Position numbers and translations under genes: made by a program. The notes under the pieces are model-generated. The model saw only the letters and a list, made by a program, of their open reading frames with translations. It made no database searches and was not told the DNA's origin. 52,617 bases of DNA from Desulfobacterales bacterium (GTDB lineage: Bacteria; Desulfobacterota; Desulfobacteria; Desulfobacterales; C00003060), in assembly GCA_013375375.1 (NCBI GenBank), contig JABXJX010000004.1, positions 1 through 52,617 on the forward strand, read 5' to 3'. This document shows, piece by piece, positions 2,065 through 24,296 of this stretch. Positions within the stretch are counted from its first letter, which is position 1. Every line of letters starts with the position of its first letter.

Positions 2065-2892
2065 ATGAAACTGGATAAGATAGGTATTTGGTCTGAGATC
2101 AAGCTGGACATCATAAAAGAGTATGCCAGTGCTTTTACGACGATAATGAGAAAGCAAGACTGGTGTAGAGGATATGCCTATATTGATGCATTTGCTGGAG
2201 CAGGGGTCCATATCCGACGAAAAACAGGAGAATTAATTCCAGGATCACCATGGAACGCCCTTGAGATTGCCAACCCTTTTACAGAGTATCACTACATAGA
2301 TATTGATAAGAAAAAAACAGAAATTCTTGAGAGGCTGGCTCCTGAAAATTTCAATATAAAGATATACTTGGGAGATTGTAATGAAATATTGGCAAAGAAA
2401 ATATTCCCCACGCTTCAAAATAAAAGCAAAAAGAGAGCACTGTGCTTTTTTGATCCTTACGGTCTGCATCTCTACTGGGAAACCATTATTGAAGCTGCCA
2501 AACTAAGGACTACTGAGATCTTTCTGAACTTTCCCCTTATGGACATGAATCGGAATGTGTTGCATAAAGACCTTATTTCAGCAGACCCTGATCAGATTGA
2601 AAGAATGAATAAGTTCTGTGGCAGTGAAGATTGGCAAGAGATTCTGTACAGGAAGGGAAAGGACCTTTTTGGTGACACATATCAGATGAAGATTGGGAGC
2701 AACGTTCAACTGGGGAAGTGGTTTATGAGTGATAGGCTACAAAAGGCTGCTGGATTTAAATTTGTGCCCGAGCCCGTGCTTATGAGAAACAGCAAAGGTG
2801 GACCTTTATTCTTCTTATTTTTTGCTACATACAATGAAACAGGTAATAAGATTGTAAGTGAAATTTTTAATAAATACAGGAAATACTTGTAA
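2065..2892 (+). CDS. tcmP: Three-Cys-motif partner protein (TcmP), methyltransferase-like fold
   Basis: GIWSEIKLDII.EY, YIDAFAGAG, GSP..AL, GDCN, FFDPYG and EIFLNF motifs. Confidence 0.85.
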   Translation: MKLDKIGIWSEIKLDIIKEYASAFTTIMRKQDWCRGYAYIDAFAGAGVHIRRKTGELIPGSPWNALEIANPFTEYHYIDIDKKKTEILERLAPENFNIKIYLGDCNEILAKKIFPTLQNKSKKRALCFFDPYGLHLYWETIIEAAKLRTTEIFLNFPLMDMNRNVLHKDLISADPDQIERMNKFCGSEDWQEILYRKGKDLFGDTYQMKIGSNVQLGKWFMSDRLQKAAGFKFVPEPVLMRNSKGGPLFFLFFATYNETGNKIVSEIFNKYRKYL

Positions 2893-4043
2893 TGGCTATT
2901 CTAAAGGAGCGCCCAGCTGAGGAGATGGAAGTCGCAAATCGAGTTCGGGAAGAAGGCCTGGCATATTCTCAAGGAGAAATGCAAGAGCCTCTTGTGAGTG
3001 AATTGTGGGCTATCCGTGGTAAGACCAACGAGGTAAGGGTTAAACAAATAGCCAGTCAATCCAAGTTACCTTTGATTTGGATAGAAAAGATACCAGGTGT
3101 AAATGGCGAAAGAGGCACAGAAAAGCTGCGAGTTGAAAGAAGTGTCCTTTTATTGCGCGATAGAATCAGTCCCTTTATTGAACAGTTCCAGCATCCCATA
3201 GGGCGGTGTGCCAAATTCTATAAATTAACAGCCTACAATAGTTGTAATTTCTGGTGCGAGTATTGTTATCTTTATTTGACCTTCCGAACACAGCCTGTTT
3301 CCACCCATTTTATAAACTATGAGAAGATGTATGACGAGATTGAAAAATTTGACAGATCACGCATACCAAAATCCTTAAGAGTCTTAAATCTTGGTGAACT
3401 TGGTGATCCTCTGGCAGTAGACTACATTACGGGCTTTGCAAAACAAATTATTCCCTTCATGCCTGAACACGCACCACGTACACGATTGCTGTTTCTGACA
3501 AAAAGTGACTGTGTGGATGAGATTTTAGGGCTTGACCACGAAGGGCAATCAATTATCTCGTTTAGTGTAAATACTGATAAGGTCTTTGAACAGTTAGAGC
3601 ACAGGACGCCTTCTCCTGAATCCCGGTTGGCGGCTGCGGCAAAAGTCCAGCAGGCAGGCTACGAAGTGCGCTTGAGAATTGATCCTGTCATCTTCTATTC
3701 TACCTGGGAGAAGGACTACACATCACTGGTTGATAAGATATTTCAATTTGTGCAGCCTACAAGGATAACGATAGGTGAATACCGACCTTCTAATGGGCTC
3801 GCCAACCATATAAGCTCGCGGTTTCCCGAGTCTGCTTTATTGAAGGTCAACAAAAGCCTGGTTAGAGAAGGAAAAAAGCTTCGATACCCTAAGAATTTGA
3901 GGATCAAGATGTTCAGAACAATCATAGACGCAATAAAAAAGCATAAAAGTGATATTGATATCGCTTTATGCAAAGAGCAGCCACAAATATGGAAGGCGCT
4001 CGGTTTAGGGATGAAAGGGCTATCATGCAACTGCGTTAAGTAG
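2892..4043 (+). CDS. Radical SAM protein, spore photoproduct lyase (SplB)-like
   Basis: CNFWCEYCYL (CxxxCxxC), GELGDPL, FLTKS, SFSVN, E..TPS..SRL.AA, RIDPVI and LCKE motifs; coupled to tcmP (TAATG). Confidence 0.8.
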   Translation: MAILKERPAEEMEVANRVREEGLAYSQGEMQEPLVSELWAIRGKTNEVRVKQIASQSKLPLIWIEKIPGVNGERGTEKLRVERSVLLLRDRISPFIEQFQHPIGRCAKFYKLTAYNSCNFWCEYCYLYLTFRTQPVSTHFINYEKMYDEIEKFDRSRIPKSLRVLNLGELGDPLAVDYITGFAKQIIPFMPEHAPRTRLLFLTKSDCVDEILGLDHEGQSIISFSVNTDKVFEQLEHRTPSPESRLAAAAKVQQAGYEVRLRIDPVIFYSTWEKDYTSLVDKIFQFVQPTRITIGEYRPSNGLANHISSRFPESALLKVNKSLVREGKKLRYPKNLRIKMFRTIIDAIKKHKSDIDIALCKEQPQIWKALGLGMKGLSCNCVK

Positions 4044-4661: not shown

Positions 4662-5351
4662 ATGGCAAAACAGAAGCAGCTAGTTCTTCAACATCTTGAA
4701 GATATATCCTGGAAGGTTTTGGAAGAGTATCCAGGGGTCGTCAAAGAGATGATCCGTAAAAAATCGGGTGTCTATGCCCTATATCGTAGGAACAAATTGT
4801 ACTATGTGGGCCTTGCTAGCAATCTTATGGGGCGGTTAAAAACCCATCTTAAAGATAGGCACCATGGCTCCTGGGAAAGATTCAGCGTATATCTGACAGT
4901 CCGTAATGAGCATATGAAAGAACTTGAATCTTTACTCTTGCGTATCGTTAATCCAAGCGGCAACAAACAAACCGGAAAATTTGCTAAGTCAGAAAACCTC
5001 CGTTCAACTCTCAATCAGAAAATCAAGGAGAACGATGCTGATCGGAGAGCATTGCTCATAGGTGGCCATGTTGCCCGTCGACGCCGTAGGTCTAAGATAA
5101 AGAAAGGGGAGGGGATCAAATCGCTTGCGGGAATAGTGGATCGTAGAATAAGCCTGAAAAGAGTGTATAAGGGTAAGGTATTCAAGGCATCTCTTCGAAA
5201 AGATGGTACCATCAGTTTTAAGGGAAAGGTTTATGAGTCTCCAACTGGAGCTGCCAGGAAAGTAGTCGGTCGGACTTGCAATGGTTGGAGTTTCTGGCGT
5301 TACAAGGACAAAAAAGGAGAATGGGTTCCTTTAAAAAATCTAAGAAAATAG
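4662..5351 (+). CDS. GIY-YIG nuclease fused to a C-terminal RAMA domain
   Basis: SGVYALY...YYVGLA.NL..RL..H...E.LE..NP.GN; C-terminal DGTI...YESPTGAA......NGWSFWRY. Confidence 0.8.
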   Translation: MAKQKQLVLQHLEDISWKVLEEYPGVVKEMIRKKSGVYALYRRNKLYYVGLASNLMGRLKTHLKDRHHGSWERFSVYLTVRNEHMKELESLLLRIVNPSGNKQTGKFAKSENLRSTLNQKIKENDADRRALLIGGHVARRRRRSKIKKGEGIKSLAGIVDRRISLKRVYKGKVFKASLRKDGTISFKGKVYESPTGAARKVVGRTCNGWSFWRYKDKKGEWVPLKNLRK

Positions 5352-5428
5352 TTTTACAAGGAGGGACAGAGGGGAGCATTCTATAGTCCCCCTGGTTCGG
5401 GTCGACGGTCGATTGAACGGAGATACTT

Positions 5429-7597
5429 ATGGCGAGGAAAAAGAAACCAAATTTGAAAAAAGAAACAAGTAATGGAGCCAATCTGGGTTTTGAAAGCCAG
5501 CTCTGGGCCGCGGCAGACAAGCTGCGTGGCCATATGGACGCTTCCGAGTATAAGCATGTTGTGCTCGGACTAATTTTTCTGAAGTACATTTCCGACGCCT
5601 TTCAGGCAAAATATCAGGAGTTGGAAGCGACGAAGGAGGCCGATTATACCGACCCTGAAGACCGCGATGAATATGCGGCTGCCAACATTTTCTGGGTACC
5701 CAAAGAGGCCCGCTGGGAGAAACTCCTTGCAGGGGCCAAGCAGCCGACCATTGGCAAACTCATTGATGACGCCATGGTCGCTATTGAAAAAGAGAACCCA
5801 AGCCTTAAAGGTGTTTTGCCCAAGGATTATGCCCGCCCATCTCTAGATAAACACCGTCTCGGGGAGCTTCTCGATATTATTGGAAAGATCGGCCTTGGTG
5901 ATAAGGCGGCCCAATCAAAGGACATCCTCGGCCGGGTATACGAGTATTTTCTTGGCCGTTTTGCCGCGGCTGAAGGCAAAGGCGGGGGTGAGTTCTATAC
6001 GCCCCAGTGTGTGGTGAAACTCCTGGTTAGAATGATCGAACCCTATAAGGGTAGAGTTTATGACCCTTGTTGCGGTTCTGGGGGTATGTTTGTTCAAAGC
6101 AGGCGGTTTGCTGAGGAACATAACGGAAAGCTCGGAGATATCTCTATCTACGGTCAGGAATCCAACCCTACAACATGGAAGCTGGCCATGATGAACATGG
6201 CTATACGAGGTATTGACGCCAATCTGGGCGGCCGGCATGCGGACAGCTTCCATAACGATCTGCACAAAGACCTCAGAACTGACTTCATTCTCGCAAATCC
6301 GCCCTTCAATATGAGCGACTGGGGTGGTAAACGTCTGCGCGAAGACGTCCGATGGAAGTACGGAATCCCTCCCATTTCGAATGCCAATTTCGCTTGGGTA
6401 CAACACTTCGCCTACCATCTGGCACCGAACGGATTTGCTGGGTTCGTTCTTGCTCAGGCCTCCCTTTCATCTGAGTCCCAAATAGAAAATGAGATCAGGC
6501 GCAGCATTGTAGAGGATGATTTGGTTGATTGCATTGTAACGTTGCCAGGGAAGCTCTTCTATACGACCCCCATACCCGTATGCCTATGGTTTCTCGCAAG
6601 GAAGAAGAACCACGCCAAGTTCAGAAACCGGTCAAAAGAAATCCTTTTCATTGATGCAAGTGCTCTAGGGATGCCAGAGTCCCGCACACATAGCTATTTA
6701 AGCGATAGCGATATCGAGCGAATTGCAGAGGCATACCATCAGTGGCGTTCAAAAGATGGACAGTATGAGGATCATAATGGGTTTTGCCGTTCCGTTCACA
6801 CCGATGATGTACGCAACGGCGGCTACAGTCTGTTTCCTGCGAAATATGTCGGAGTGGTTCACGTAGACGACGCCATTTCTTCCAGAGAGTTCTCGAAAAA
6901 CCTTCTTCAGAAATGGGATGAATATCTACGGTGCCGCGAAAAGCAGCATAGTGTCGCCCGACAGGTTGACAGTGCCATGCACGTTGCAGTCAGGAAACAA
7001 CGGATCATACGCCCTTCGAAATACATCAATATCAAACTCGATGACATTCTGGAACGGTCAGACGAAAGGCTAGGAAGTCGTCCAGAACCAGAGATACTTA
7101 CTTGCACAGAACGAGCTGGTCTCATTTTCCAGAAAGAGCGTTTTGCTAAACGTGTCGCTACGAAGAACACTAGTAAGTACAAAGTGGTGCGTAAAACTGA
7201 CATTGTCTACAATCCCTACTTACTTTGGGCAGGAGCCATTGACCAATGTTGGATTGTCGACATAGGTATTACATCACCAGCGTACGAAGTATTGCGTGTG
7301 AGAGATGGTTTCAATGCCACCCTCGTAGGCGCTCTGATTAAGAGTCCAAGAATGATCAAGACCTACAACGGCATTTCTGTCGGGACAGTACAGAGGAGAA
7401 GAAGATCACCTGTCGAAAGGTTCCTAGATCTGGACGTAGTAATTCCATCGCTTAATGACCAGAAACGTTTCAGTGAATTGAGCACCGCTATACAGAACGA
7501 GAGGCTTTTGCTCAGGGAAACTGCTCAGTGCATAGATGTGGTTCTTCTGGACCTGTGCAAATTTTGGCTCCTGTACAATGGAATACAGGAAGCGTAA
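5429..7597 (+). CDS. hsdM: Type I R-M N6-adenine methyltransferase fused to a single HsdS-type target recognition domain
   Basis: [26 protein letters not shown] and NPPF motifs; C-terminal KLDDIL...[13 protein letters not shown]...GITSPAYEV...[13 protein letters not shown]. Confidence 0.9.
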
Positions 7598-7627
7598 GCC
7601 GAGTGTCTCGCAACAAAGGTGAGGAGC

Positions 7628-10600
7628 ATGATTGATGGTTCTGTCAATGAGTCGGCTTTAGAACGAACCACTCTCGACTGGTTTTGGGGCATGGGTTGGC
7701 AAACAGCTTTTGGACCGGACATAAGCCCTGATGGTCTAGCCTGTGAACGCGAGAATTACGACCAAGTCTTGTTCGTTGGACGACTTTTTACTGCTCTTGA
7801 AAACATCAACCCGAACATCCCCGCAGATGCCATTGATGAAGCCGTTCGCAAGATCACGCGCACCGAATCTCCCAGCCTGATTGAGAACAACAGACGCTTT
7901 CATCTCATGCTCACCGATGGCGTGGATGTTTCCTACATGCAAGACGGCCGCGAGGTACACGATAAGGTCTGGCTGCTGGACCTTGACGACTTGGAAAACA
8001 ACGATTGGCTTGTTGTCAACCAGTTTACCGTCATTGAAGATCGCAGGAACCGCAGGCCGGACATTGTGGTGTTTGTCAATGGCCTTCCCCTGGCGGTTAT
8101 TGAACTCAAAAACCCGGCAGATGAAAAGGCGACCATTCGCCAGGCATACAACCAGTTTCAAACTTACAAGAAAGATATCCCAGCACTATTTGGCTTCAAC
8201 GAAGTGTTGGTCATTTCAGACGGCCTTGAGGCCCGGATGGGGACGCTTACAAGTGGCTGGGACCGTTTCATGCCCTGGCGGACTATTGAAGGTAAAGAGG
8301 TTGCGCCAAAGGGCTCTGTCGAGCTCGAAGTTCTCTTGAAGGGTGTCTTTGAGAAGCGGCGTTTTCTTGATCTAATCATGAATTTTGTAGTCTTTGAGGA
8401 CGATGGGGCGACTATCATGAAAAAGGCGGCGGCATATCACCAGTTTCATGCTGTTAACAGAGCAGTGGACTGCACTCTGTCAGCCTGCGGTATTGAGGCA
8501 CAACCCAACCAATTATATGCACGCTTTCCTGCCATGGATGAACAGAACCCCTTTGAGGTGAAAGAACCCTTTGCACTGTATGGTCAAAACACGGATCATT
8601 TCGGTGGGCGGCGTATCGGGGTGATCTGGCATACCCAGGGGAGCGGAAAGAGCCTCTTGATGGCGTTCTTTGCAGGGAAGGTGATCCGCCATCCGGCCAT
8701 GGAAAACCCCACTCTGCTGATGATCACTGACAGAAACGATCTGGACGACCAGCTTTTCGGCACTTTTTCCGGCTGCAAGGACCTCTTGCGCCAGACCCCT
8801 GTGCAGGCTGAAAGCAGGCCACACCTGCGGGAACTCCTGAAGGTCCCTGCCGGTGGCGTGGTGTTTACCACCATTCAGAAATTCATGCCGGATGCTAAAG
8901 GCGACCAGTACCCGGAGTTGTCGCCGCGGCGGAACATTGTGGTCATTGCCGACGAAGCCCACCGGAGCCAATATGATTTTATTGACGGTTTTGCCCGTCA
9001 CATGCACGACGCGCTGCCGAAAGCATCCTTCATTGGATTTACAGCCACGCCTATAGAAAGTACGGACAGAAGCACCCCCGCCGTATTCGGGGATTATATC
9101 GACAAGTATGATATTCTCCAGGGTGTTGAGGACAGGGCCACGGTCCGGATCTATTATGAAGGGCGACTGGCAAAAATTGAGCTGCGCGAACAGGAAAGGC
9201 CGAAGATCGATCCGGAGTTTGAAGAAATTACCGAGGGGGAGGAAGAATCCGAAAAGCAGCGCTTGCGCACCAAGTGGGCCGCACTTGAGGCGATGGTGGG
9301 CACAGAGAAGCGAATCGGCCTTGTTGCCAACGACCTGGTAAATCACTTTGAGAGTCGGCTGGCCGTGATGGATGGAAAGGCGATGATCGTGTGCATGAGT
9401 CGCCGCATTTGCGTGGACATGTACAATGCTATTGTTAAGCTTCGTCCGGATTGGCATGCCGACGATGATGACAAGGGGATGGTAAAGATCGTTATGTCCG
9501 GCGCGGCATCCGACAAAGTGGACTGGCAGCTCCATATCCGTAACAAAGCGCGCAGGGAATCCCTGGCAAAGCGGTTTAAAGACTCCCAGACCCCTTTCAA
9601 ACTGGTGATTGTCCGTGATATGTGGCTCACCGGGTTTGACTGCCCGTCGCTTCATACCATGTATGTGGATAAGCCAATGCGAGGTCACGGCCTGATGCAG
9701 GCGATTGCGAGAGTCAATCGTGTTTTCAAGGACAAACCCGGCGGCTTGGTGGTGGATTACCTGGGGCTTGCCGACCAGCTCAAACGTGCACTGGCGGACT
9801 ACACTGAGGCAGGCGGCAGGGGTAAGGCGACGGTCGACCAGGAAGAGGCTGTAGCTGTTATGACGGAAAAATACGAAATCGTCGTCTCCATGTTCCATGG
9901 GTTTGACTATGCTGTGTTTCTTCATGCTGAACCGTCGCAGCGCATAGCGGGCATTGCCGCTGCCATGGAGCATATCTTGACCCTGGAAGACGGGAAAAAG
10001 AGATATCTTGAAGCTGTAACGGCCTTGTCAAAGGCTTTTGCTTTGGCTGTGCCACGTGAGGAGGCGATTAAGATTCGCGACGATATTGGTTTTTTCCAGG
10101 AAGTCCGGAGCGGCCTGGCCAAGGCAACCGTCGAGGGGGCCAGCAAGACGCCTGAAGACCTGGACACGGCGATTCGACAACTCGTGTCCCGTGCCGTGGC
10201 TCCGGATGGGGTCGTGGACATATTCGCAGTCGCAGGGCTCAAAAAGCCCGATATATCTATCCTGTCGGATGATTTCCTTCAAGAGGTCCGGCAGCTTCCG
10301 CACCGGAACCTCGCCGTTGAATTACTCCGAAAGCTCCTGAATGACGAGATCAAGGTACGATCGAAAAAGAATGTAGTTCAAGCGAAGTCTTTTGCCGAGA
10401 TGCTGGAGAAATCAATACAGAAGTATCAAAACCGGATGATTGAGGCGGCTCAAGTTATTGAGGAGTTGATCGAATTAGCCAAGGAAATGCGCGAGGCAGG
10501 AAAGCGCGGAGAAAAACTCGGTCTGACAGAGGATGAAATTGCGTTCTATGATGCATTAGGGGTCAACGACAGTGCTGTAAAGGTGTTAGGGGATAAGACG

Positions 10601-10816
10601 CTTAAGACCATCGCACACGAATTAGTGGAGGCTGTTCGCAAAAGCGTCAGTGTTGATTGGACCGTTCGAGAGAATGCGCGAGCTCAGATTCGCGTAATTG
10701 TTAAACGCATTCTGCGCAAATACGGCTATCCCCCCGATAAGCAGGAGAAAGCGACACAGACTGTTTTGGAACAGGCAGAAGTTCTTTGTCACGACTGGAT
10801 GGAAAAAGCGGCATGA
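7628..10816 (+). CDS. hsdR: Type I R-M restriction subunit
   Basis: [20 protein letters not shown] nuclease motif, [37 protein letters not shown]; aggag before ATG 7628. Confidence 0.95.
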
Positions 10817-10858
10817 AGGAGTCGAACCGAAATAAGAGTGTGAAGATTGGAAATGTCC

Positions 10859-11008
10859 ATGGGCGGGAGATTTGGAAAATATGGTGATGCCAAGCGAAAG
10901 TCAAAGATTCGCAAAACCCGCCTCAGGACAGCTGCCCCTTACAATGATGATTTTACCCCTGAAAATGGGCCTCTAAGGCTTCAAAACACTAGGATATTAC
11001 TAGGTTAG
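10859..11008 (+). CDS. Basic junction micro-ORF, divergent copy (MGGRFGKYGDAKRKSKIRKTRLR...)
   Basis: First 23 codons align with the copies at 18811, 24046, 29018 and 30912. Confidence 0.45.
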   Translation: MGGRFGKYGDAKRKSKIRKTRLRTAAPYNDDFTPENGPLRLQNTRILLG

Positions 11009-12283: not shown

Positions 12284-12344
12284 GGGTCAAGTCTCCGTTT
12301 GACTCTTGCTGGGTTCTATCAAAGGTCAAACGGAGACTTGACCC
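12284..12344. repeat. REP-like hairpin, 20-bp perfect inverted repeat, left boundary of the CBASS module
   Basis: GGGTCAAGTCTCCGTTTGAC ... GTCAAACGGAGACTTGACCC. Confidence 0.9.
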
Positions 12345-12459
12345 TCTATTATTTTCTGCTTGACAGGAGGGACTATAGGATGTCCCCAAGTTCATCTGGA
12401 AACCGTTTACCGAGCTTTTTCGCTCTCTAAGTTTGGAGGGTTGCCTGCAGGAAGACACC

Positions 12460-13413
12460 ATGAGTCCAGCCAGACACAAATTAACGAAGTACTTTGCCGC
12501 ATTCTTTAAAAGAGTGAACCCCTCTCCGACCTATGAGGAAATAGCAGCCAGAGCTCATTCTGAGATTAAGGGTTTGATTGAAGACAAGGACGGCCCTGCT
12601 GGCGATCTCCAAATCAGATGCTTTCTTCAGGGGTCATACAGGCGAGAAACGGCAATCCACACAATCAACGATGTGGATCTGGTAGCCCACTGTCGTTTGT
12701 CCCACACATCTTCTGCCAATCAGAACACTCGGGATCAGATCTTCAGGGCAGTTGCCGATGCCATCCTTGCCAACAATAGGTATAAAGACAAGGTCAAGTA
12801 CCGAAAGCGTAGCATATGCATAAAAGTCATGCTCGAAGGTATAAAGGTGGAAGTTCTTCCCACGATTCGAGTTCAAGGAAAGGCTTATGAATATGAGCCG
12901 TTTTACATGTTTCAGCCAGAAGAGAATGAGAACATAGATGGCTTTTGGAGAAAAGGATTCGCACGATATCATCAGAGCCTCTGTACAGAGAAGAACGCCA
13001 GTACATCTGGTCTTTTTGTTCCAATGATAAAAGTATTCAAGCACCTTCGCTTTGTAGAATCTACCGTTTCTGAAAACGAAGCCGTGTCGTTTCATATCGA
13101 GTGCCTTCTCTATATACTGAAGAACTCTATCTATTCGGGAGCACCGTGTGAGTGTATTGAGGCGGTCCTAAAGGCCGTAGCCGGCTTTACCCCGGACAAG
13201 GCAGAACATTCGGGCATACGAAGTCCATGCAGGGACAAAAAGCTGTTCGATCCTAATGAATGGACCATCACCTCCTACCGAGAATTCAATCAAGCCGCTG
13301 CTAAGTGGTACGGAATTGCTGCGTATGCCAATGATCAAAATGACAAGGAAGAGGCAATACGAGCCTGGAAAGAGCTGTTGGGGGACAGCTATTTCCCGAG
13401 GGATCCCAAATGA
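12460..13413 (+). CDS. CD-NTase (cGAS/DncV-like, SMODS) cyclic oligonucleotide synthase
   Basis: FLQGSYRRETAI...NDVDLV, third acidic residue in VEVLPT, SFHIECLLY, C-terminal AW.ELLG..FP. Confidence 0.9.
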   Translation: MSPARHKLTKYFAAFFKRVNPSPTYEEIAARAHSEIKGLIEDKDGPAGDLQIRCFLQGSYRRETAIHTINDVDLVAHCRLSHTSSANQNTRDQIFRAVADAILANNRYKDKVKYRKRSICIKVMLEGIKVEVLPTIRVQGKAYEYEPFYMFQPEENENIDGFWRKGFARYHQSLCTEKNASTSGLFVPMIKVFKHLRFVESTVSENEAVSFHIECLLYILKNSIYSGAPCECIEAVLKAVAGFTPDKAEHSGIRSPCRDKKLFDPNEWTITSYREFNQAAAKWYGIAAYANDQNDKEEAIRAWKELLGDSYFPRDPK

Positions 13414-14375
13414 ACGTTTTCAAGATATTGTCGCTAGACGGCGGAGGGATGAAAGGGGTTTTTTCGGCAGCATTTCTTTGTGCCTTGGAGGAGAAGCTTG
13501 GCAAGAGGACGGCCGACTATTTTGATCTCGTAGTTGGCACGTCGACCGGAGGAATAATTGCCATCGCTCTTGGTCTTGGGATCTCTGCAAAGGATATTCT
13601 GGATTTTTACATGTCAGAAGGGAAACATATCTTTGGGAATAACGGATTCGTTCAAAGAGCAATCAAAGGTATCAGGGGTCTGGTCTCACCAAGACACGAT
13701 GTCAGACATTTGGAAAATGCATTGAGAAATCATTTCGGAGATAAGCGTTTGGGACATTCGAAAACCAGACTGGTTATCCCTTCGTTCAATCCCGCCACTG
13801 GTGATGTGTATCTTTATAAAACTGCACATCATTCAACCCTAAAAGAAGACTACAAGAAGTTGGCAAGGGAGGTGGCAAGGTCCACGTCGGCCGCTCCAAC
13901 ATATTTCTCTGGGAACAAGATCGGTTTGCTTACTCATCTAGTGGACGGAGGTTTGTGGGCCAACAATCCATCAATGGTTGCCGTCACTGAGGCCATCGGA
14001 TTGTTAGGGCGCTCTCCGGAAGAACTGGCTCTTCTTAGTGTGGGGACATCTTCTTCACAATTGTCTGTTCCAGAGAAGACTAGATCTTCGGGCGGTCTCC
14101 TCAGGTGGGCATGGACAATGAAAGATTTGTTCATGCATGTCCAGTCTATTACTGCACACAAACAAGCTTCTAACGTTCTTCGCCGTAGTGGCAGATATGT
14201 CAGGATAGCGCCCATCGGATCCGACTTGAGCATACGTATGGATGACCCTAAGGAAGCTTTAACACTAATTCCTTTTGGGGAGCGTGCTGCTCGAAATAGC
14301 CGGTCTAAAGTAGAGAACATGTTCTTCGCGGCACGGGCTCCCGAATTTGTCCCAGAATACACACTGACTTTATGA
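13410..14375 (+). CDS. capV: CBASS patatin-like phospholipase effector
   Basis: LDGGGMKG, GTSTGG, SAAPTYF and DGGLWANNP motifs; ATGA overlap with the CD-NTase. Confidence 0.9.
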   Translation: MNVFKILSLDGGGMKGVFSAAFLCALEEKLGKRTADYFDLVVGTSTGGIIAIALGLGISAKDILDFYMSEGKHIFGNNGFVQRAIKGIRGLVSPRHDVRHLENALRNHFGDKRLGHSKTRLVIPSFNPATGDVYLYKTAHHSTLKEDYKKLAREVARSTSAAPTYFSGNKIGLLTHLVDGGLWANNPSMVAVTEAIGLLGRSPEELALLSVGTSSSQLSVPEKTRSSGGLLRWAWTMKDLFMHVQSITAHKQASNVLRRSGRYVRIAPIGSDLSIRMDDPKEALTLIPFGERAARNSRSKVENMFFAARAPEFVPEYTLTL

Positions 14376-14429
14376 GATTTGGAGATTCCTGTTCGCATAT
14401 CATACTAGGAAAGAAAGGAGGCATGAGCC

Positions 14430-14603
14430 ATGGTATACGATCCTCACAGCGCTGACAAGGCTCTAGATGACCAAGAAGATTTCGACGAAATCGTCGAAAT
14501 TGATGAAGACGGAAACATTTACAAACCAGGTCGAGCTCCCCGTCGCTATGGTAAAAAACCTACCATATTAAGAGATCCAGAAGGGGAATACTGTACAGAG
14601 TAG
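14430..14603 (+). CDS. 57-aa acidic peptide, candidate conjugation substrate (below ORF-track cutoff)
   Basis: AAGGAGG 8 nt upstream; MVYDPHSADKALDDQEDFDEIVEIDEDGNIYKPGRAPRRYGKKPTILRDPEGEYCTE*; stops 6 nt before the E2 gene. Confidence 0.7.
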   Translation: MVYDPHSADKALDDQEDFDEIVEIDEDGNIYKPGRAPRRYGKKPTILRDPEGEYCTE

Positions 14604-14609
14604 GAAGAC

Positions 14610-15041
14610 ATGGTTAGATATCAAACAAACAAAGAGCTGATATTCATGGGCTCGGATTTGTCCCGACCAAGGATGACCGTTGAGCGAGAGAAAATGGACT
14701 ACCATTTTCCAAAATTCGGTTTCTACGGCAGTTCCGGAAAGGTCAAATCCGTTAGAGGATACTTGAGTACAAGCTACGGCAATTCCTATTTCGTGAGGAT
14801 AGACATCCCGGAAGTATATCCGTATGTCCTGCCCGAAGTATCATTGCCTTATGAATACCTACCATCGGGATGTCCCCACAAGTTTTCTGAGGATCGTATA
14901 TGTGTCATGAAAAACGATCAATGGTCCTCAACTTTGTCTCTAGCTTTCTTGGTAGGAAAAGCAGCTATCTGGTTAAATAAGTATGACTCTTGGAAGCGGC
15001 GCGGTCAAACTCAATGGCCGGGGAAGGGACAATCACATTGA
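14610..15041 (+). CDS. Stand-alone prokaryotic E2/UBC-like enzyme
   Basis: IP..YP...P.V...PH......ICV....W......WL.KY..W......WPG....H, with putative catalytic Cys in RICVM. Confidence 0.8.
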   Translation: MVRYQTNKELIFMGSDLSRPRMTVEREKMDYHFPKFGFYGSSGKVKSVRGYLSTSYGNSYFVRIDIPEVYPYVLPEVSLPYEYLPSGCPHKFSEDRICVMKNDQWSSTLSLAFLVGKAAIWLNKYDSWKRRGQTQWPGKGQSH

Positions 15042-15892
15042 CAGAAGAAAACAGATCGTCACTCGACTACAGCCGAATCAACTACCTTCTCAATCCTAAG
15101 GAATTCAAAGACGTTCGTGTCACTGTAGTTGGCTTGGGTAGTGGTGGTGCGCCTGCGGTTGACCACTTAACAATGAATGGTGTTCGTATCTGGGAATTGT
15201 ATGATCCTGATACTCTTGATTCGGTCAACCTTGTCAAGCATCCGAGAATGCGAAAGGACCTAGGGCGAACTAAGGTTGAAATACAGAAGGAGTGGATACT
15301 TGATCGAAACCCTCAGGCAATAGTCGAAACCTACGTTGAAGATGTCATACTCTCAGAGAACTTTATCGATTCCGTTCGTCGCTCTGACCTAGTCTTATGC
15401 TGCCCGGACAAGAAGAGCGTTAGAGAATTTGTGAATGATCAGTGCGTCTCTCAACAAGTACCGTTCGTGACGGCCTCCGTATTCCGAACCGGCATTGGCG
15501 GCGAAGTATATGCCTATATTCCTGACCGAACTGGCTGCTACAGATGTCTTCAGCTTTTCTCGCTTGTAAACGAGTTCAACTTGTCAGACGATTCGTTAGG
15601 GTTGACGTCTGAGGAAGAAGAGCGAATATATGGCCTTGGTGAAAAGGACTTTCATGCCTCTGGGTTATCTATTGACATTCAAACGATTGCTCTAATTCAG
15701 GCTCGAATGGCTTTGTCTGTAATCCTTCCCAATTCCTGTACTTCTTTGCCAAAGGTCAAAGGAAATTGGATTATTTTCGGGAACAGACCGGCCAAACATA
15801 TTTTTAGATATCATCTCGAAGTAAAAGAAATGTTACTGAAACCTCAGAAAACGTGCAATTGCCAGCGTAAAGATCCTGCGGAAGGAGACTAA
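15038..15892 (+). CDS. ThiF/E1-like adenylyltransferase
   Basis: VVGLGSGG, DPDTL...NLVKH, G.TK, GCYRC and C-terminal CNC; TTG start overlaps the E2 stop. Confidence 0.85.
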   Translation: MTEENRSSLDYSRINYLLNPKEFKDVRVTVVGLGSGGAPAVDHLTMNGVRIWELYDPDTLDSVNLVKHPRMRKDLGRTKVEIQKEWILDRNPQAIVETYVEDVILSENFIDSVRRSDLVLCCPDKKSVREFVNDQCVSQQVPFVTASVFRTGIGGEVYAYIPDRTGCYRCLQLFSLVNEFNLSDDSLGLTSEEEERIYGLGEKDFHASGLSIDIQTIALIQARMALSVILPNSCTSLPKVKGNWIIFGNRPAKHIFRYHLEVKEMLLKPQKTCNCQRKDPAEGD

Positions 15893-15893
15893 G

Positions 15894-17000
15894 ATGGGAC
15901 TTAGAGCCAGAAATAGGGAAACGAGACAGGCTGTTGGAAGTGTTTCAGTCGAGATATACGAAGCTGTACTCAATAGAATTCAAAGTACCATTGGAAAATC
16001 TGATTTTGAGGAAGGGGGCAAGCTCCTAGGGCGCTTACGAAATGACGGCAGGAATCTGTTAATTACCGTTGAAAGCTATATCGACTCAGGTCCCGGCGTG
16101 AGTCATTCGGCTACTCACCTACACCCAAATGGAGAGTATCAGGAAAGGGCATTTCGTCTTGTTGAGGCATTCGACTCGGAGATCGAGCATTTGGGTTCAT
16201 GGCACAGTCATCATTGCAACGGACTCCCAGAACTGAGTAATGGAGATATCAGTGGATATATTAGAAGTGTGAATAACCCCCAGTACAACCTTGACTATTT
16301 CGTTGTGATTTTGATCAATGGCTTGGTTCGCGGTAACCTTGAGAAACGATACTTTCTTTTTGAGCGACATAAGCTGAATGAATATATTGAACTTTCTGAA
16401 GGTCGCGATGTGAAAATCATTCACAGAACATCTCAACTTGACCCCATATTGGCTTCTGCAGAGAGCCTTTCGAACTCTCGAAGAAGGCAAGTTGGTCAGC
16501 ATTTCTCTGTTCAAAAGGAGAGGGAATTGCCACCCCAGAAATCCGTAAATCCATTAAACAAAATTCGACTGGAAGACAAGGAATGGATAATCGCCAGGTT
16601 TCCAAACGCTAAATTAAGTCGAAGCAAAGCGGACGGTTCTGTTTATTGGAATTGGTTCATATGGCGAGAACCAGGAAGGCTCCAGGTTAGTTTTAAATAC
16701 CCTACTGAGGCGACGATCCCGACTCCGGGGACGGCCTATCTTGAAATCCGTTTTCGTGACGAAATTCTTGTCTCAGAAGACATCGCACTGGACCGGAATA
16801 GATTTGGCCAAATTCAAAACCGTTTAAATTCTGCTGAGGCGAATTTGAAGATTAAATTCCAGAAGAACACGACCAAGACCGACGTTGTTAAGGGGACAAC
16901 AGGGACATTTTATCGAAAGATCGGGGTCAAACCTACACATTTGACAAGAAATAAGGGTCAAACAAGGGGTCAGACCTACACATTTGACAAAAAGGGATGA
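15894..17000 (+). CDS. JAB/MPN metallopeptidase with C-terminal E2/RWD-like domain; tail runs into repeats
   Basis: EEGGKLLG, SGPG, LGSWHSHH....ELSNGD; second domain RLEDKE.I..RFP...W...F.YP; last ~30 codons are repeat-derived. Confidence 0.8.
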   Translation: MGLRARNRETRQAVGSVSVEIYEAVLNRIQSTIGKSDFEEGGKLLGRLRNDGRNLLITVESYIDSGPGVSHSATHLHPNGEYQERAFRLVEAFDSEIEHLGSWHSHHCNGLPELSNGDISGYIRSVNNPQYNLDYFVVILINGLVRGNLEKRYFLFERHKLNEYIELSEGRDVKIIHRTSQLDPILASAESLSNSRRRQVGQHFSVQKERELPPQKSVNPLNKIRLEDKEWIIARFPNAKLSRSKADGSVYWNWFIWREPGRLQVSFKYPTEATIPTPGTAYLEIRFRDEILVSEDIALDRNRFGQIQNRLNSAEANLKIKFQKNTTKTDVVKGTTGTFYRKIGVKPTHLTRNKGQTRGQTYTFDKKG

Positions 17001-17392
17001 GGAGTTGAATTTGGGAACTCCTTTTCCAGTTTATAAGTAATCCTTTTAGGGACGGTTCGTGATGGCAAGAAGAAGGGTCTCGAAAGAGCAAAGTGCCGCG
17101 CGGAGTTCAAACGGAAGAGCACTAAAAAAAGGATCAAATCGGCCCCAACTGTGTAATTTCGGGAAAAGTTGGGGACGTTGGAAAAGTTGGGGACGTTGGT
17201 AGGTTTTGAAGGTTATCGGGGGAGTTTGAGGAGGCCCTTTAGTTTTACAGTTTCCAAGTAATCCTTTTATAGCAGGTTCATGAGGGCAAGAAGAAGGGTC
17301 TCGAAAGAGCAAGGTGCCGCGCGGGGTTCAAACAGAAGAGCGACAGAAAAGGATCAAATGTTGAAATATCATGGACGTTCCGGAGTTTTCCC
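16923..17392. repeat. Composite junction: tandem GGGGTCA ends, two family B linkers and duplicated GGGGAC ends
   Basis: ggggtca(a/g)acctacacatttgacaa at 16923 and 16966; gcaagaagaagggtctcgaaagagcaa.gtgccgcgcgg.gttcaaac.gaagag twice; ggaaaagttggggacgtt twice. Confidence 0.85.
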
Positions 17393-18760: not shown

Positions 18761-18810
18761 CTTGGGACATTAAAAACCTTGGGAACGTTGTTGACTATAA
18801 GGAAGTGTCC

Positions 18811-18972
18811 ATGGCAGGTAGATTTGGAAAATATGGTGATTTAAAGCGCAAGGAGCGCTTGCGCAAAAACCGCCTCAGGCCGCCTGGCCTTCAACAGCGG
18901 GGAAAGAACAAACCCTTAAAAGGGTCTCGAAAGAGCAAAGTGCCGCGCGGAGTTCAAACAGAAGAGTGCTAA
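18811..18972 (+). CDS. 53-aa basic junction micro-ORF (MAGRFGKYGDLKRKERLRKNRL...)
   Basis: taaggaag upstream; same-length copies at 24046 and 29018. Confidence 0.55.
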   Translation: MAGRFGKYGDLKRKERLRKNRLRPPGLQQRGKNKPLKGSRKSKVPRGVQTEEC

Positions 18973-19185
18973 AATACCCGCAACTGTGTAATATCTACAC
19001 ACTGTTCCCCTCAAATTGTAACATTTCGTTACAGTATCTCCTTGGGGCTGGCCGGCCCCTTGTAAAAACAAAAGATCACCCCCGCAAATCCTTGACAAAA
19101 CAGCACCTCGCTGATACCCAATCCCTGATATTGCCAATGATCCATTAACCCGAATTATAGGGGGTGCCATGCACTGATTCCCAAG

Positions 19186-23976: not shown

Positions 23977-24045
23977 TTTAAGGGAGAACTTAGGAGCTGT
24001 TCTTGACCACGCTGAATAAGTCTGATGCGAAGATCGGAAGTGCCC

Positions 24046-24207
24046 ATGGCAGGTAGATTTGGAAAATATGGTGATTTAAAGCGCAAGGAGCGTTTGCGCA
24101 AAAACCGCCTCAAGCCACCTGTTCCTCAGCAGCGAGGAAAGGACAAACCTTTAAAAGGGTCTCGAAAGAGCAAAGTGCCGCGCGGAGTTCAAACAGAAGA
24201 GCGATAA
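24046..24207 (+). CDS. 53-aa basic junction micro-ORF
   Basis: Paralogue of 18811; followed by a family B linker and a ggatgtcccgg end. Confidence 0.55.
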   Translation: MAGRFGKYGDLKRKERLRKNRLKPPVPQQRGKDKPLKGSRKSKVPRGVQTEER

Positions 24208-24296
24208 AAAAGAATCAAATGTTGAAATATCATGGATGTCCCGGACGTTTCCAAACTCATTATTTCTGATCCGACCCTGTTAGTTCTCGAGGAGGT

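Follow-up and report, generated by a model that had tools for sequence, protein, structure and literature searches.

The window considered here, meaning the whole stretch of DNA that was analysed, comprises 52,617 nt of a Desulfobacterales bacterium (assembly GCA_013375375.1, contig JABXJX010000004.1, positions 1-52,617, forward strand). Within it, the interval 12433-17000 is filled by six plus-strand open reading frames (ORFs) arranged as an operon. The first encodes a CD-NTase (cGAS/DncV-like nucleotidyltransferase), the cyclase of an anti-phage system that signals through cyclic oligonucleotides (CBASS), at 12460..13413 (317 aa from the ATG at 12460, the ORF being open from a TTG at 12433), and is followed by a patatin-like phospholipase effector of the CapV-like type (13410..14375, 321 aa). 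Then come a 57-aa peptide, which is a candidate modifier (14430..14603, with an AGGAGG Shine-Dalgarno sequence 9 nt before its ATG), a stand-alone E2 of the UBC fold (14610..15041, 143 aa), a stand-alone E1-like adenylating enzyme of the ThiF/MoeB type (15014..15892, 292 aa from the ATG at 15014) and a JAB/JAMM metalloprotease (15894..17000, 368 aa). The genes overlap or lie 1-54 nt apart: CD-NTase and patatin share 4 nt, E2 and E1 share 28 nt in different frames, and gaps of 6 nt and 1 nt separate the peptide from E2 and E1 from JAB, respectively. An earlier note, made from the letters of the sequence, had described this tightly packed block, and all six ORFs are indeed found where it placed them. 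A look for RNA evidence on the operon turned up no data set. With modest confidence, the operon can be read as a minimal CBASS, in which the CD-NTase would signal to the patatin, joined to a self-contained conjugation cassette, in which the peptide would replace a ubiquitin-like modifier.

The two CBASS components are recognisable from several lines of comparison. The CD-NTase matches the Pfam SMODS family (E 4.8e-15) and the PADLOC cyclase model (1.5e-27), carries the GS...DVD active-site motif and has as its nearest solved chains in the PDB 9sa5, a CD-NTase (3.5e-9), and 6e0k, of the CdnE type (1.7e-7); its match to the NCBIfam model CBASS_cyclase_b (1.1e-19) falls under the equivalog cut-off of that model. 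The patatin matches Pfam Patatin (1.1e-28), the PADLOC phospholipase effector (1.3e-95) and NCBIfam CBASS_lipase (2.3e-77, 260 bits, cut-off 200). With its GGGxKG, GTSTG and DGG motifs, it is by sequence a candidate nucleotide-activated CBASS effector.

The peptide consists of an acidic N-terminus, a first motif (EIVEIDEDGNIY), Lys43, a second motif (ILRDPEGEY) and a variable tail of three residues, CTE. A protein search returned 13 homologues of 54-58 aa with 65-93% identity, and a pattern scan of metagenome contigs returned 93 relatives, from which 80 loci were kept; together with one locus from a Desulfobacula metagenome-assembled genome, these make up the 81 loci considered below. The genome-contig scan that gave the Desulfobacula locus used patterns of the cyclase-linked clade and is silent on the clade linked to metallo-beta-lactamase (MBL)-fold genes. 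Among 36 aligned peptides, E23, I24, D25, E26, G28, K43 and the stretch L47-R-D-P-x-G-E-Y54 are invariant, so that the core of motif 1 reads EIDExG. No model of Pfam, PADLOC, NCBIfam or PHROG covers the peptide (among the PHROGs nothing falls below E 0.019), and the ESM Atlas gave no usable match, which makes it an example of the small ORFs in defence operons that are missed by family libraries.

The most sceptical explanation of the locus is that an ordinary Cap2 was split artificially into E2 and E1, by misassembly or a frameshift, and that the peptide ORF is there by chance. It could draw on the overlap of the two enzyme ORFs in different frames, and on the fact that the best PADLOC match of the E1 (1.7e-22) is to a 431-aa E1-E2 model, of which it covers positions 173-401. 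The peptide half of this explanation is contradicted by saturation at synonymous sites: the synonymous differences per site (pS) amount to 0.74-0.96 in 8 of 10 homologue pairs, and the nonsynonymous ones (pN) to 0.07-0.26, lower pS values (0.14 and 0.47) being confined to the two closest pairs, the window with locus L004 and L017 with L021. Judged by this pattern, the peptide is a real protein under purifying selection and not a chance ORF. As for the enzymes, the E2 has its own stop codon, separate from the E1, in 65/65 related loci, and the same 28-nt overlap recurs in several of them; the split is therefore genuine, as the earlier note had claimed, and a frameshifted Cap2 is ruled out by these stop codons. 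The artefact as a whole is left with a negligible probability.

The gene order behind the peptide is highly conserved. Where at least 300 nt of downstream sequence were available, the E2 starts no more than 150 nt past the peptide in 70/74 loci, the four exceptions being L050, with a frameshifted E2, L063 and L077, which are phage contigs, and L023, a short contig. An E1 is present in 56/58 loci with at least 1000 nt downstream and a JAB in 41/44 with at least 1900 nt. These loci were collected with the peptide as bait, and what the counts show is a dependence of the peptide on the enzymes, not of the enzymes on the peptide. The identities of peptide, E2, E1 and JAB also drop together between the cyclase-linked and the MBL-linked clades, which is the pattern expected of a co-inherited unit.

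What lies upstream is much more variable. In 65 loci, 600 nt or more of upstream sequence were available; among these, the partner of the peptide is a gene of about 250 aa with an MBL fold (Pfam Lactamase_B, 3.1e-10) in 44, a CD-NTase, a patatin or both in 14, and neither in 7, the last group including L018, L020/L022 and L055. The comparison of loci supports the view that peptide, E2, E1 and JAB form a separable module, able to occur behind a CD-NTase, behind an MBL or with neither of them, and this agrees with the suggestion of the earlier note that a separate conjugation module had been joined to a minimal CBASS. Searches with the enzymes as queries extend the picture in part. The E2 alignment found, among 401 genomes of the phylum, only the genome of origin and one distant match (G364; L086 and L087), in which the order is JAB-E2-E1, the E2 shares 29% identity and the peptide motif is absent; this arrangement probably represents another family of E1/E2/JAB operons. 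The same alignment gave no matches among viral contigs and 261 clusters in a protein collection, whose sequences come without genomic context, and a search for the JAB in 60 relatives gave one weak match only (G028).

Several features converge on the C-terminus of the peptide. In 17/36 aligned members the peptide ends exactly at the Tyr of GEY, and in the other 19/36 it continues for 1-5 unconserved residues; a segment after GEY that is variable or absent is what one sees with a pro-peptide destined for removal. In addition, peptide and E2 are fused in frame at 8 loci and in 5 database proteins of 191-196 aa, and the E2 part of these fusions starts 1-3 residues past GEY. The same ending recurs on a second protein: in the cyclase-linked clade, a gene after the JAB carries the motif K(K/S)(T/N)ILRDPxGEY at 8 loci and on the contig L091. 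This second carrier may be free, with a length of 115-135 aa (L006:8756-9163, L009:10546-10893, L010:10590-10970, L020:4286-4654, the last representing L020/L022, and L091:664-1020), and is then built of a hydrophobic N-terminal helix, a coiled-coil-like stretch, a hairpin and the GEY tail at its end. Alternatively, the GEY tail is internal and stands just before a domain resembling a methyltransferase dependent on S-adenosylmethionine (SAM) (L007:7156-8247, L015:4473-5831 and L021:4136-5431). The protein P0149 has this fusion as well; there and in L021, GEY is immediately followed by a copy of motif 1 (E..EID..G), the order of the two motifs being the reverse of that in the peptide. The GEY module is also found at the end of unrelated N-terminal domains in other database proteins. 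The second carrier was not found in the window or in the genome from which it derives (87% complete), and a pair of 108-nt repeats occupies its place.

The variable position x of RDPxGEY is tracked by a residue of the JAB, R124 in the window, which lies six positions after the zinc ligand Asp118. Where x is E, the JAB residue is R or K in 25/26 loci, and where x is K, it is E in 4/5; likewise, x = Q pairs with a JAB Q and x = R with a JAB N. A neighbouring JAB column shows a similar pattern, and the x of the second carrier falls in the same charge class. Elsewhere, the search for columns linked to x gave one uninterpretable column in the E1 and none in the E2. On the JAB tree the pattern comes down to some two independent changes, so that this covariation is suggestive and not a statistical proof. 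Taken together, synteny, GEY ends, peptide-E2 fusions, the second carrier and the covariation back the idea of the earlier note that the cascade acts on the peptide, and they support a picture in which the peptide tail, rather than the cyclase, looks like the species that is trimmed and attached.

The three enzymes of the cassette retain the residues expected of active proteins. The E2 matches the PADLOC E2 model (8.1e-7), and within its family UQ_con is weakly matched by 31/37 members and Prok-E2_B is matched by 9/37; His90 and the catalytic Cys98 are invariant in 37/37. Homologues of the E2 bear the precomputed Pfam tag PF26395, which we take to be a CBASS E2 domain. The E1 matches Pfam ThiF (7e-29), has a GLGSGG motif and belongs to a family in which G40, G42, S43, G44, G45, D132 and R137 are invariant. 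Its invariant cysteines are C130 and four of the zinc-binding type (C175, C178, C281 and C283), none of them in the crossover region, where Tyr206-Gly207 is invariant. Tyr206 may recall Bub, in which the E1 forms a tyrosine oxyester with the modifier.

In the last enzyme, the JAB domain extends over residues 16-180, approximately, and matches the PADLOC JAB model over residues 16-164 (1.5e-12), with the JAMM residues Glu39, His104, His106, Ser115 and Asp118 invariant in the family. An AlphaFold2 model (pLDDT 82.4) places it close to an Rpn11 homologue (Z 16.3) and to the Cap3 structure 9ild_A (Z 15.3, rmsd 2.5 over 141 residues). Beyond this domain lies a conserved alpha+beta C-terminal domain (about 217-330), followed by a disordered tail. 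The earlier note had called the gene JAB-E2-like, a label that found no support: comparison of the C-terminal domain with the E2 alignment gave an hhalign probability of 5%, and the structural matches are middling and of other folds, so that an E2/RWD fold is unsupported. For residues 217-337, the best matches are DR_1245 (Z 9.1), an actin-capping subunit and folds resembling secretion chaperones (VIA; whole-protein model).

The affinities of the E1 bring in an explanation of a different kind, according to which the peptide is a precursor similar to those of ribosomally synthesised and post-translationally modified peptides (RiPPs), comparable to the pairs MccA/MccB and PaaP/PaaA, with the E1 performing a chemistry other than conjugation and the JAB trimming the product. 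MccB adenylates a peptide C-terminus, the substrate here would also be a short peptide, and the E1 profile does match MccB (2e-18) and PaaA (1.7e-6). Nevertheless, ThiF (3.4e-21) and MoeB (2.4e-19) outscore MccB among the solved chains of the PDB, in which Cap2 reaches 8.7e-7. An exporter or immunity gene is absent from the cassette, which is surrounded by a defence island containing a type I restriction-modification (R-M) system and CBASS, and the same tail is found on proteins of 115-450 aa. Furthermore, we know of no RiPP route in which an E2 with a catalytic Cys takes part. We regard this explanation as highly improbable.

The natural peptide-E2 fusions also allowed the relation between the two proteins to be modelled. 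The AlphaFold2 model of a fusion reached a pLDDT of 86.8 and a pTM of 0.88, with a pLDDT of 63 at the junction. The peptide part appears in it as a helix and three short strands, the strands lying in residues 11-40, with a pLDDT of 80-90. The best structural match is 7nvk, a UFC1 bound to an E1-derived peptide (Z 8.8, with 128 aligned residues at rmsd 3.4, spanning residues 15-183 of the model), followed by the Leishmania UFC1 homologue 3kpa (Z 8.1), the CdnG-E2 structure 8hsb_B (Z 7.9) and, lower in the ranking, Cap2 (Z 6.6). On the strength of this model, motif 1 (EIVEIDExG) is probably an E2-docking element. As seen within the fusion, the peptide appears too small for a full beta-grasp, and its conserved end is Tyr, not Gly; none of the operon proteins matched a ubiquitin-like (Ubl) family in Pfam, PADLOC or NCBIfam. 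Prediction of a complex between E1 and peptide gave 0.63, 0.01 and 0.02 in three runs; controls were not folded, and the result was counted neither way.

An older logic would leave the substrate role to the upstream enzyme. The cyclase, or the MBL of other loci, would then be the protein that E1 and E2 activate and conjugate, and the peptide would be an adaptor between that enzyme and the E2 or a lysine-bearing acceptor for the C-terminus of the enzyme. Such a role would fit with type II CBASS, where, according to the available part of the literature, the substrate of Cap2 is the CD-NTase. Moreover, a CD-NTase/patatin pair or an MBL stands directly before the cassette in 58/65 of the loci in the upstream census, Lys43 is invariant in the peptide, and the docking of the peptide on the E2 suggested by the fusion model is what an adaptor would do. 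Against this stand the ends of the enzymes themselves. The window cyclase has a short C-terminus, ...LLGDSYFPRDPK, exactly as the earlier note had read it, and the cyclases of the clade (12 listed, 10 distinct) stop 4-6 residues past a conserved LLGDxYF, with A, K, E, Q or S as the last residue; the MBL tails of relatives are likewise variable. To judge by these tails, the cyclase as the conjugated substrate looks unlikely. In L018, L020/L022 and L055 the cassette is found without either enzyme upstream, and the residues after GEY, the fusions joined at GEY, the second carrier and the charge covariation between tail and JAB would all go unexplained. This older logic is, in our estimation, unlikely, with a minor but real share of the probability.

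For the preferred reading, a minimal CBASS with a peptide-conjugating cassette, what was observed comprises the genes present, their active-site residues, synteny, the patterns of tails and fusions, and covariation; every chemical step and the target are inferred. The JAB would recognise the LRDPxGEY tail and cut after the Tyr, removing the variable extension (CTE in the window); in relatives, the same cut would release the peptide from the E2 fusion, or the GEY-tailed domain from the methyltransferase fusion. The ThiF-type E1 would then adenylate the exposed C-terminal carboxylate of the peptide, and the activated peptide would be handed to Cys98 of the E2. This step may be direct, given that no crossover cysteine is invariant in the E1 family; the E1 Cys of Cap2 is described, in the part of the source available, as dispensable in vitro. 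The E2 would finally transfer the peptide to a lysine on the target, and the JAB could also reverse the mark. Candidate targets are the upstream enzyme (the cyclase here, the MBL in most relatives) or a phage protein. If the cyclase were the target, the mark would prime or restrain it in the manner of cGASylation.

Several points weigh against this scheme. No E1 substrate with a C-terminal Tyr is known to us; the usual end is Gly or Ala. The few changes on the JAB tree, already mentioned, limit what the covariation can carry, and the fusion model rests on 9 paired rows only. The cut may instead fall after Gly52, which would make EY a conserved dipeptide on the prime side. Since the window is without the second GEY-tailed protein that is common to most cyclase-linked relatives, the operon found here may lack a part. 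Synteny around loci baited with the peptide cannot prove that the enzymes never occur without it. A substrate role for the cyclase or the MBL also remains, because in the canonical relatives the cassette always adjoins the enzyme that is its substrate. Finally, a bulky C-terminal residue (G436E) abolished function in the cGAS of V. cholerae, as far as the accessible portion of that account goes.

Homologues of the peptide are also borne by phages. Lone copies ending in ...ILRDPEGEY were found on three phage-like contigs (L063:7986-8129, L077:4651-4797 and L084:3239-3361), and E2, E1 and JAB are absent from their neighbourhood. Both L063 and L077 have terminase and portal matches, the copy of L077 being flanked by the terminase large subunit and the portal, and that of L063 lying downstream of the terminase; L084, an IMG/VR contig, has terminase-sized and portal-sized ORFs, classed by size alone. 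The peptide queries found no match in records of cultured phages and plasmids. Speculatively, the phage copies could act as decoys for the cassette, or the host peptide could be a mimic of them.

These lone copies, which stand within phage packaging modules, lend some weight to the notion that the peptide is a pseudo-substrate, never conjugated, whose tail is bound by the JAB, the E2 or both and which blocks the cassette, or else the cyclase, as long as there is no infection; the phage homologues would be mimics that keep the system off. The covariation of tail and JAB and the predicted docking on the E2 would indeed show recognition, not transfer. However, in every clade the peptide is accompanied by an intact E1 and by an E2 whose catalytic Cys is invariant, loci such as L020 offer no other candidate substrate, and natural peptide-E2 pre-proteins suit a released modifier better than an inhibitor. 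A purely inhibitory peptide is, on this evidence, improbable. A bolder version of peptide conjugation, which we put forward tentatively as something that may well not hold in full, is a tag of about 50 residues without a ubiquitin fold, whose Tyr-ended LRDPxGEY tail would be exposed by the JAB, activated by a ThiF-type E1 and passed on by a stand-alone E2. Such a tag would be portable between CD-NTase and MBL partners, and a second set of GEY-tailed proteins, including methyltransferase fusions, would be tagged as well; the phage copies would be decoys saturating the cascade, or the host peptide would mimic a phage assembly factor, and its conjugation would poison packaging.

The surroundings of the operon have features of their own. 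A perfect 20-bp inverted repeat (12284-12303 / 12325-12344, with a 21-nt spacer) lies about 115 nt upstream of the cyclase ATG; its right arm is also flagged as a hairpin, and the repeat 12284-12344 is possibly an operator or the terminator of the preceding gene. Downstream, the operon is bounded by two direct copies of a 108-nt repeat of family D1 (17022-17129 and 17243-17350). More generally, a repeated element of 60-190 nt separates gene cassettes that follow one another in the island: one site is behind hsdR, one behind the JAB gene, and two lie farther along, with copies at 10839-10900, 17022-17129, 17243-17350, 18791-18987 and 24026-24222; a small ORF (M.GRFGKYGD.KRK...) starts in the copies at 10839-10900, 18791-18987 and 24026-24222. 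The type I R-M system lies just upstream of CBASS, with HsdM at 5429-7597 and HsdR at 7619-10816. The defence-island context of 4662-10816 includes a GIY-YIG/RAMA protein, and a radical SAM gene resembling spore photoproduct lyase is found at 2892-4043.

Related loci show further neighbours. Upstream of many MBL-type loci there is a divergent set of three genes (L031:2250-4848, minus strand, with equivalents in L049, L064-L068, L071, L080 and L081), encoding a ParA-like P-loop protein of about 580 aa with TPR repeats, an MqsA-like zinc-ribbon helix-turn-helix protein and a protein of 125 aa; this set may act in the system as a regulator or as a toxin-antitoxin module. Behind the JAB there is, in MBL-type loci, one family of predicted membrane proteins, 220-300 aa long. 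In loci of the Desulfobacula type (L003:9420-9954 and L005:1763-3352), the JAB gene ends early, at about 159 aa, and is followed by a transposase-like ORF; what is left of that JAB gene lies on another contig, L091, together with the second GEY-tailed gene.

If peptide conjugation is correct, the cassette would provide bacterial immunity with a new kind of protein tag. Three E1/E2 routes are known to us in this field, and the C-terminus activated in them is that of the cyclase (type II CBASS) or of a ubiquitin-like protein (Bil and Bub). A free peptide of about 50 residues would represent the missing intermediate between the own tail of an enzyme and a dedicated ubiquitin-like protein, and its Tyr end would widen the range of C-termini activated by E1 enzymes. 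A peptide that can be tagged would also be a simple handle on the targets of the cascade, which are still open for type II CBASS and 6A-MBL. The association with two unrelated partner enzymes, together with the phage-borne homologues, makes the cassette a tractable case of modular immunity and of possible mimicry.

Among short modifiers that lack a beta-grasp fold, Pup offers a parallel, as its C-terminus is activated enzymatically; it is ligated by PafA, not by an E1/E2 pair. MccA, in turn, a peptide on which the E1-like enzyme MccB acts, becomes a nucleotide antibiotic, and neither the Pup nor the MccA/MccB pathway is known to use an E2 or a JAB.

With type II CBASS (operon type 6b) the window shares a CD-NTase, a patatin effector, an E2 with a catalytic Cys, a ThiF-type E1 and a JAB of Cap3-like fold in one operon, and in both cases the cassette probably regulates or complements a cyclic-nucleotide defence. 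It differs in that E2 and E1, fused in Cap2, are separate, in that the JAB has an additional conserved domain, the protein carrying about 200 extra residues, and in that the E1 is far closer to ThiF, MoeB and MccB than to Cap2. Furthermore, the cyclase is without an extended conserved tail, and a conserved C-terminal motif is carried instead by the additional peptide gene. The stand-alone E2 of about 150 aa that lies beside the CD-NTase in type II (short) CBASS, represented by the Serratia CdnG-E2, resembles the E2 described here, and 8hsb_B is among its closest structures; in that system, E1, JAB and peptide are absent and the cyclase tail is the substrate. With 6A-MBL (operon type 6a), most relatives share the MBL-fold gene directly before the cassette, and E1, JAB and MBL show weak matches to the NCBIfam models of this system: for NF058523 (cap2_3), the E1 scores 39.8 bits and the JAB 16.1 bits against a cut-off of 320, and the MBL of L031 scores 40.9 against 220. 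On the other hand, cap2_3 is a triple fusion of E2, E1 and JAB, in place of which three separate enzymes and a peptide are found here, and the window operon has a cyclase and a lipase and no MBL gene. The two contexts of the cassette echo types 6b and 6a in the survey by Iyer et al. 2006, which correspond today to type II CBASS and 6A-MBL; for these types, the available part of that work describes fused enzymes and no peptide (PMC1779556).

The Bil system (BilABCD) resembles the cassette in having separate genes for modifier, E2, JAB and E1, and a similar logic of anti-phage conjugation is possible. In contrast, BilA is an ISG15-like beta-grasp protein ending in Gly, the E1 (BilD) is multidomain, the genes stand in another order and a cyclase or MBL partner is missing. 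Type I Bub, as described in the accessible part of its report, comes close to the cassette in other respects: the modifier gene stands directly before that of the E2, to which it is sometimes fused, a JAB peptidase is present in the operon, and the BubAB pre-protein, a fusion of Ubl and E2, is cut by the JAB domain of the operon after the last residue of the modifier (PMC11601596). This provides a precedent for the release of a modifier by a cut at a conserved C-terminal residue. According to the same portion of text, the E1 and E2 of Bub have no catalytic Cys and form oxyesters, whereas here Cys98 of the E2 is invariant and the modifier has about 50 aa and ends in Tyr. No description of a peptide-E2-E1-JAB cassette or of an LRDPxGEY tail was found in the portions available of the literature on type II CBASS, Bil, Bub and 6A-MBL and of the 2006 survey; supplementary operon tables to the CBASS, Bub and 6A-MBL papers could list such an arrangement. 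The architecture resembles each of these four systems, but it fails defining features of every one of them.

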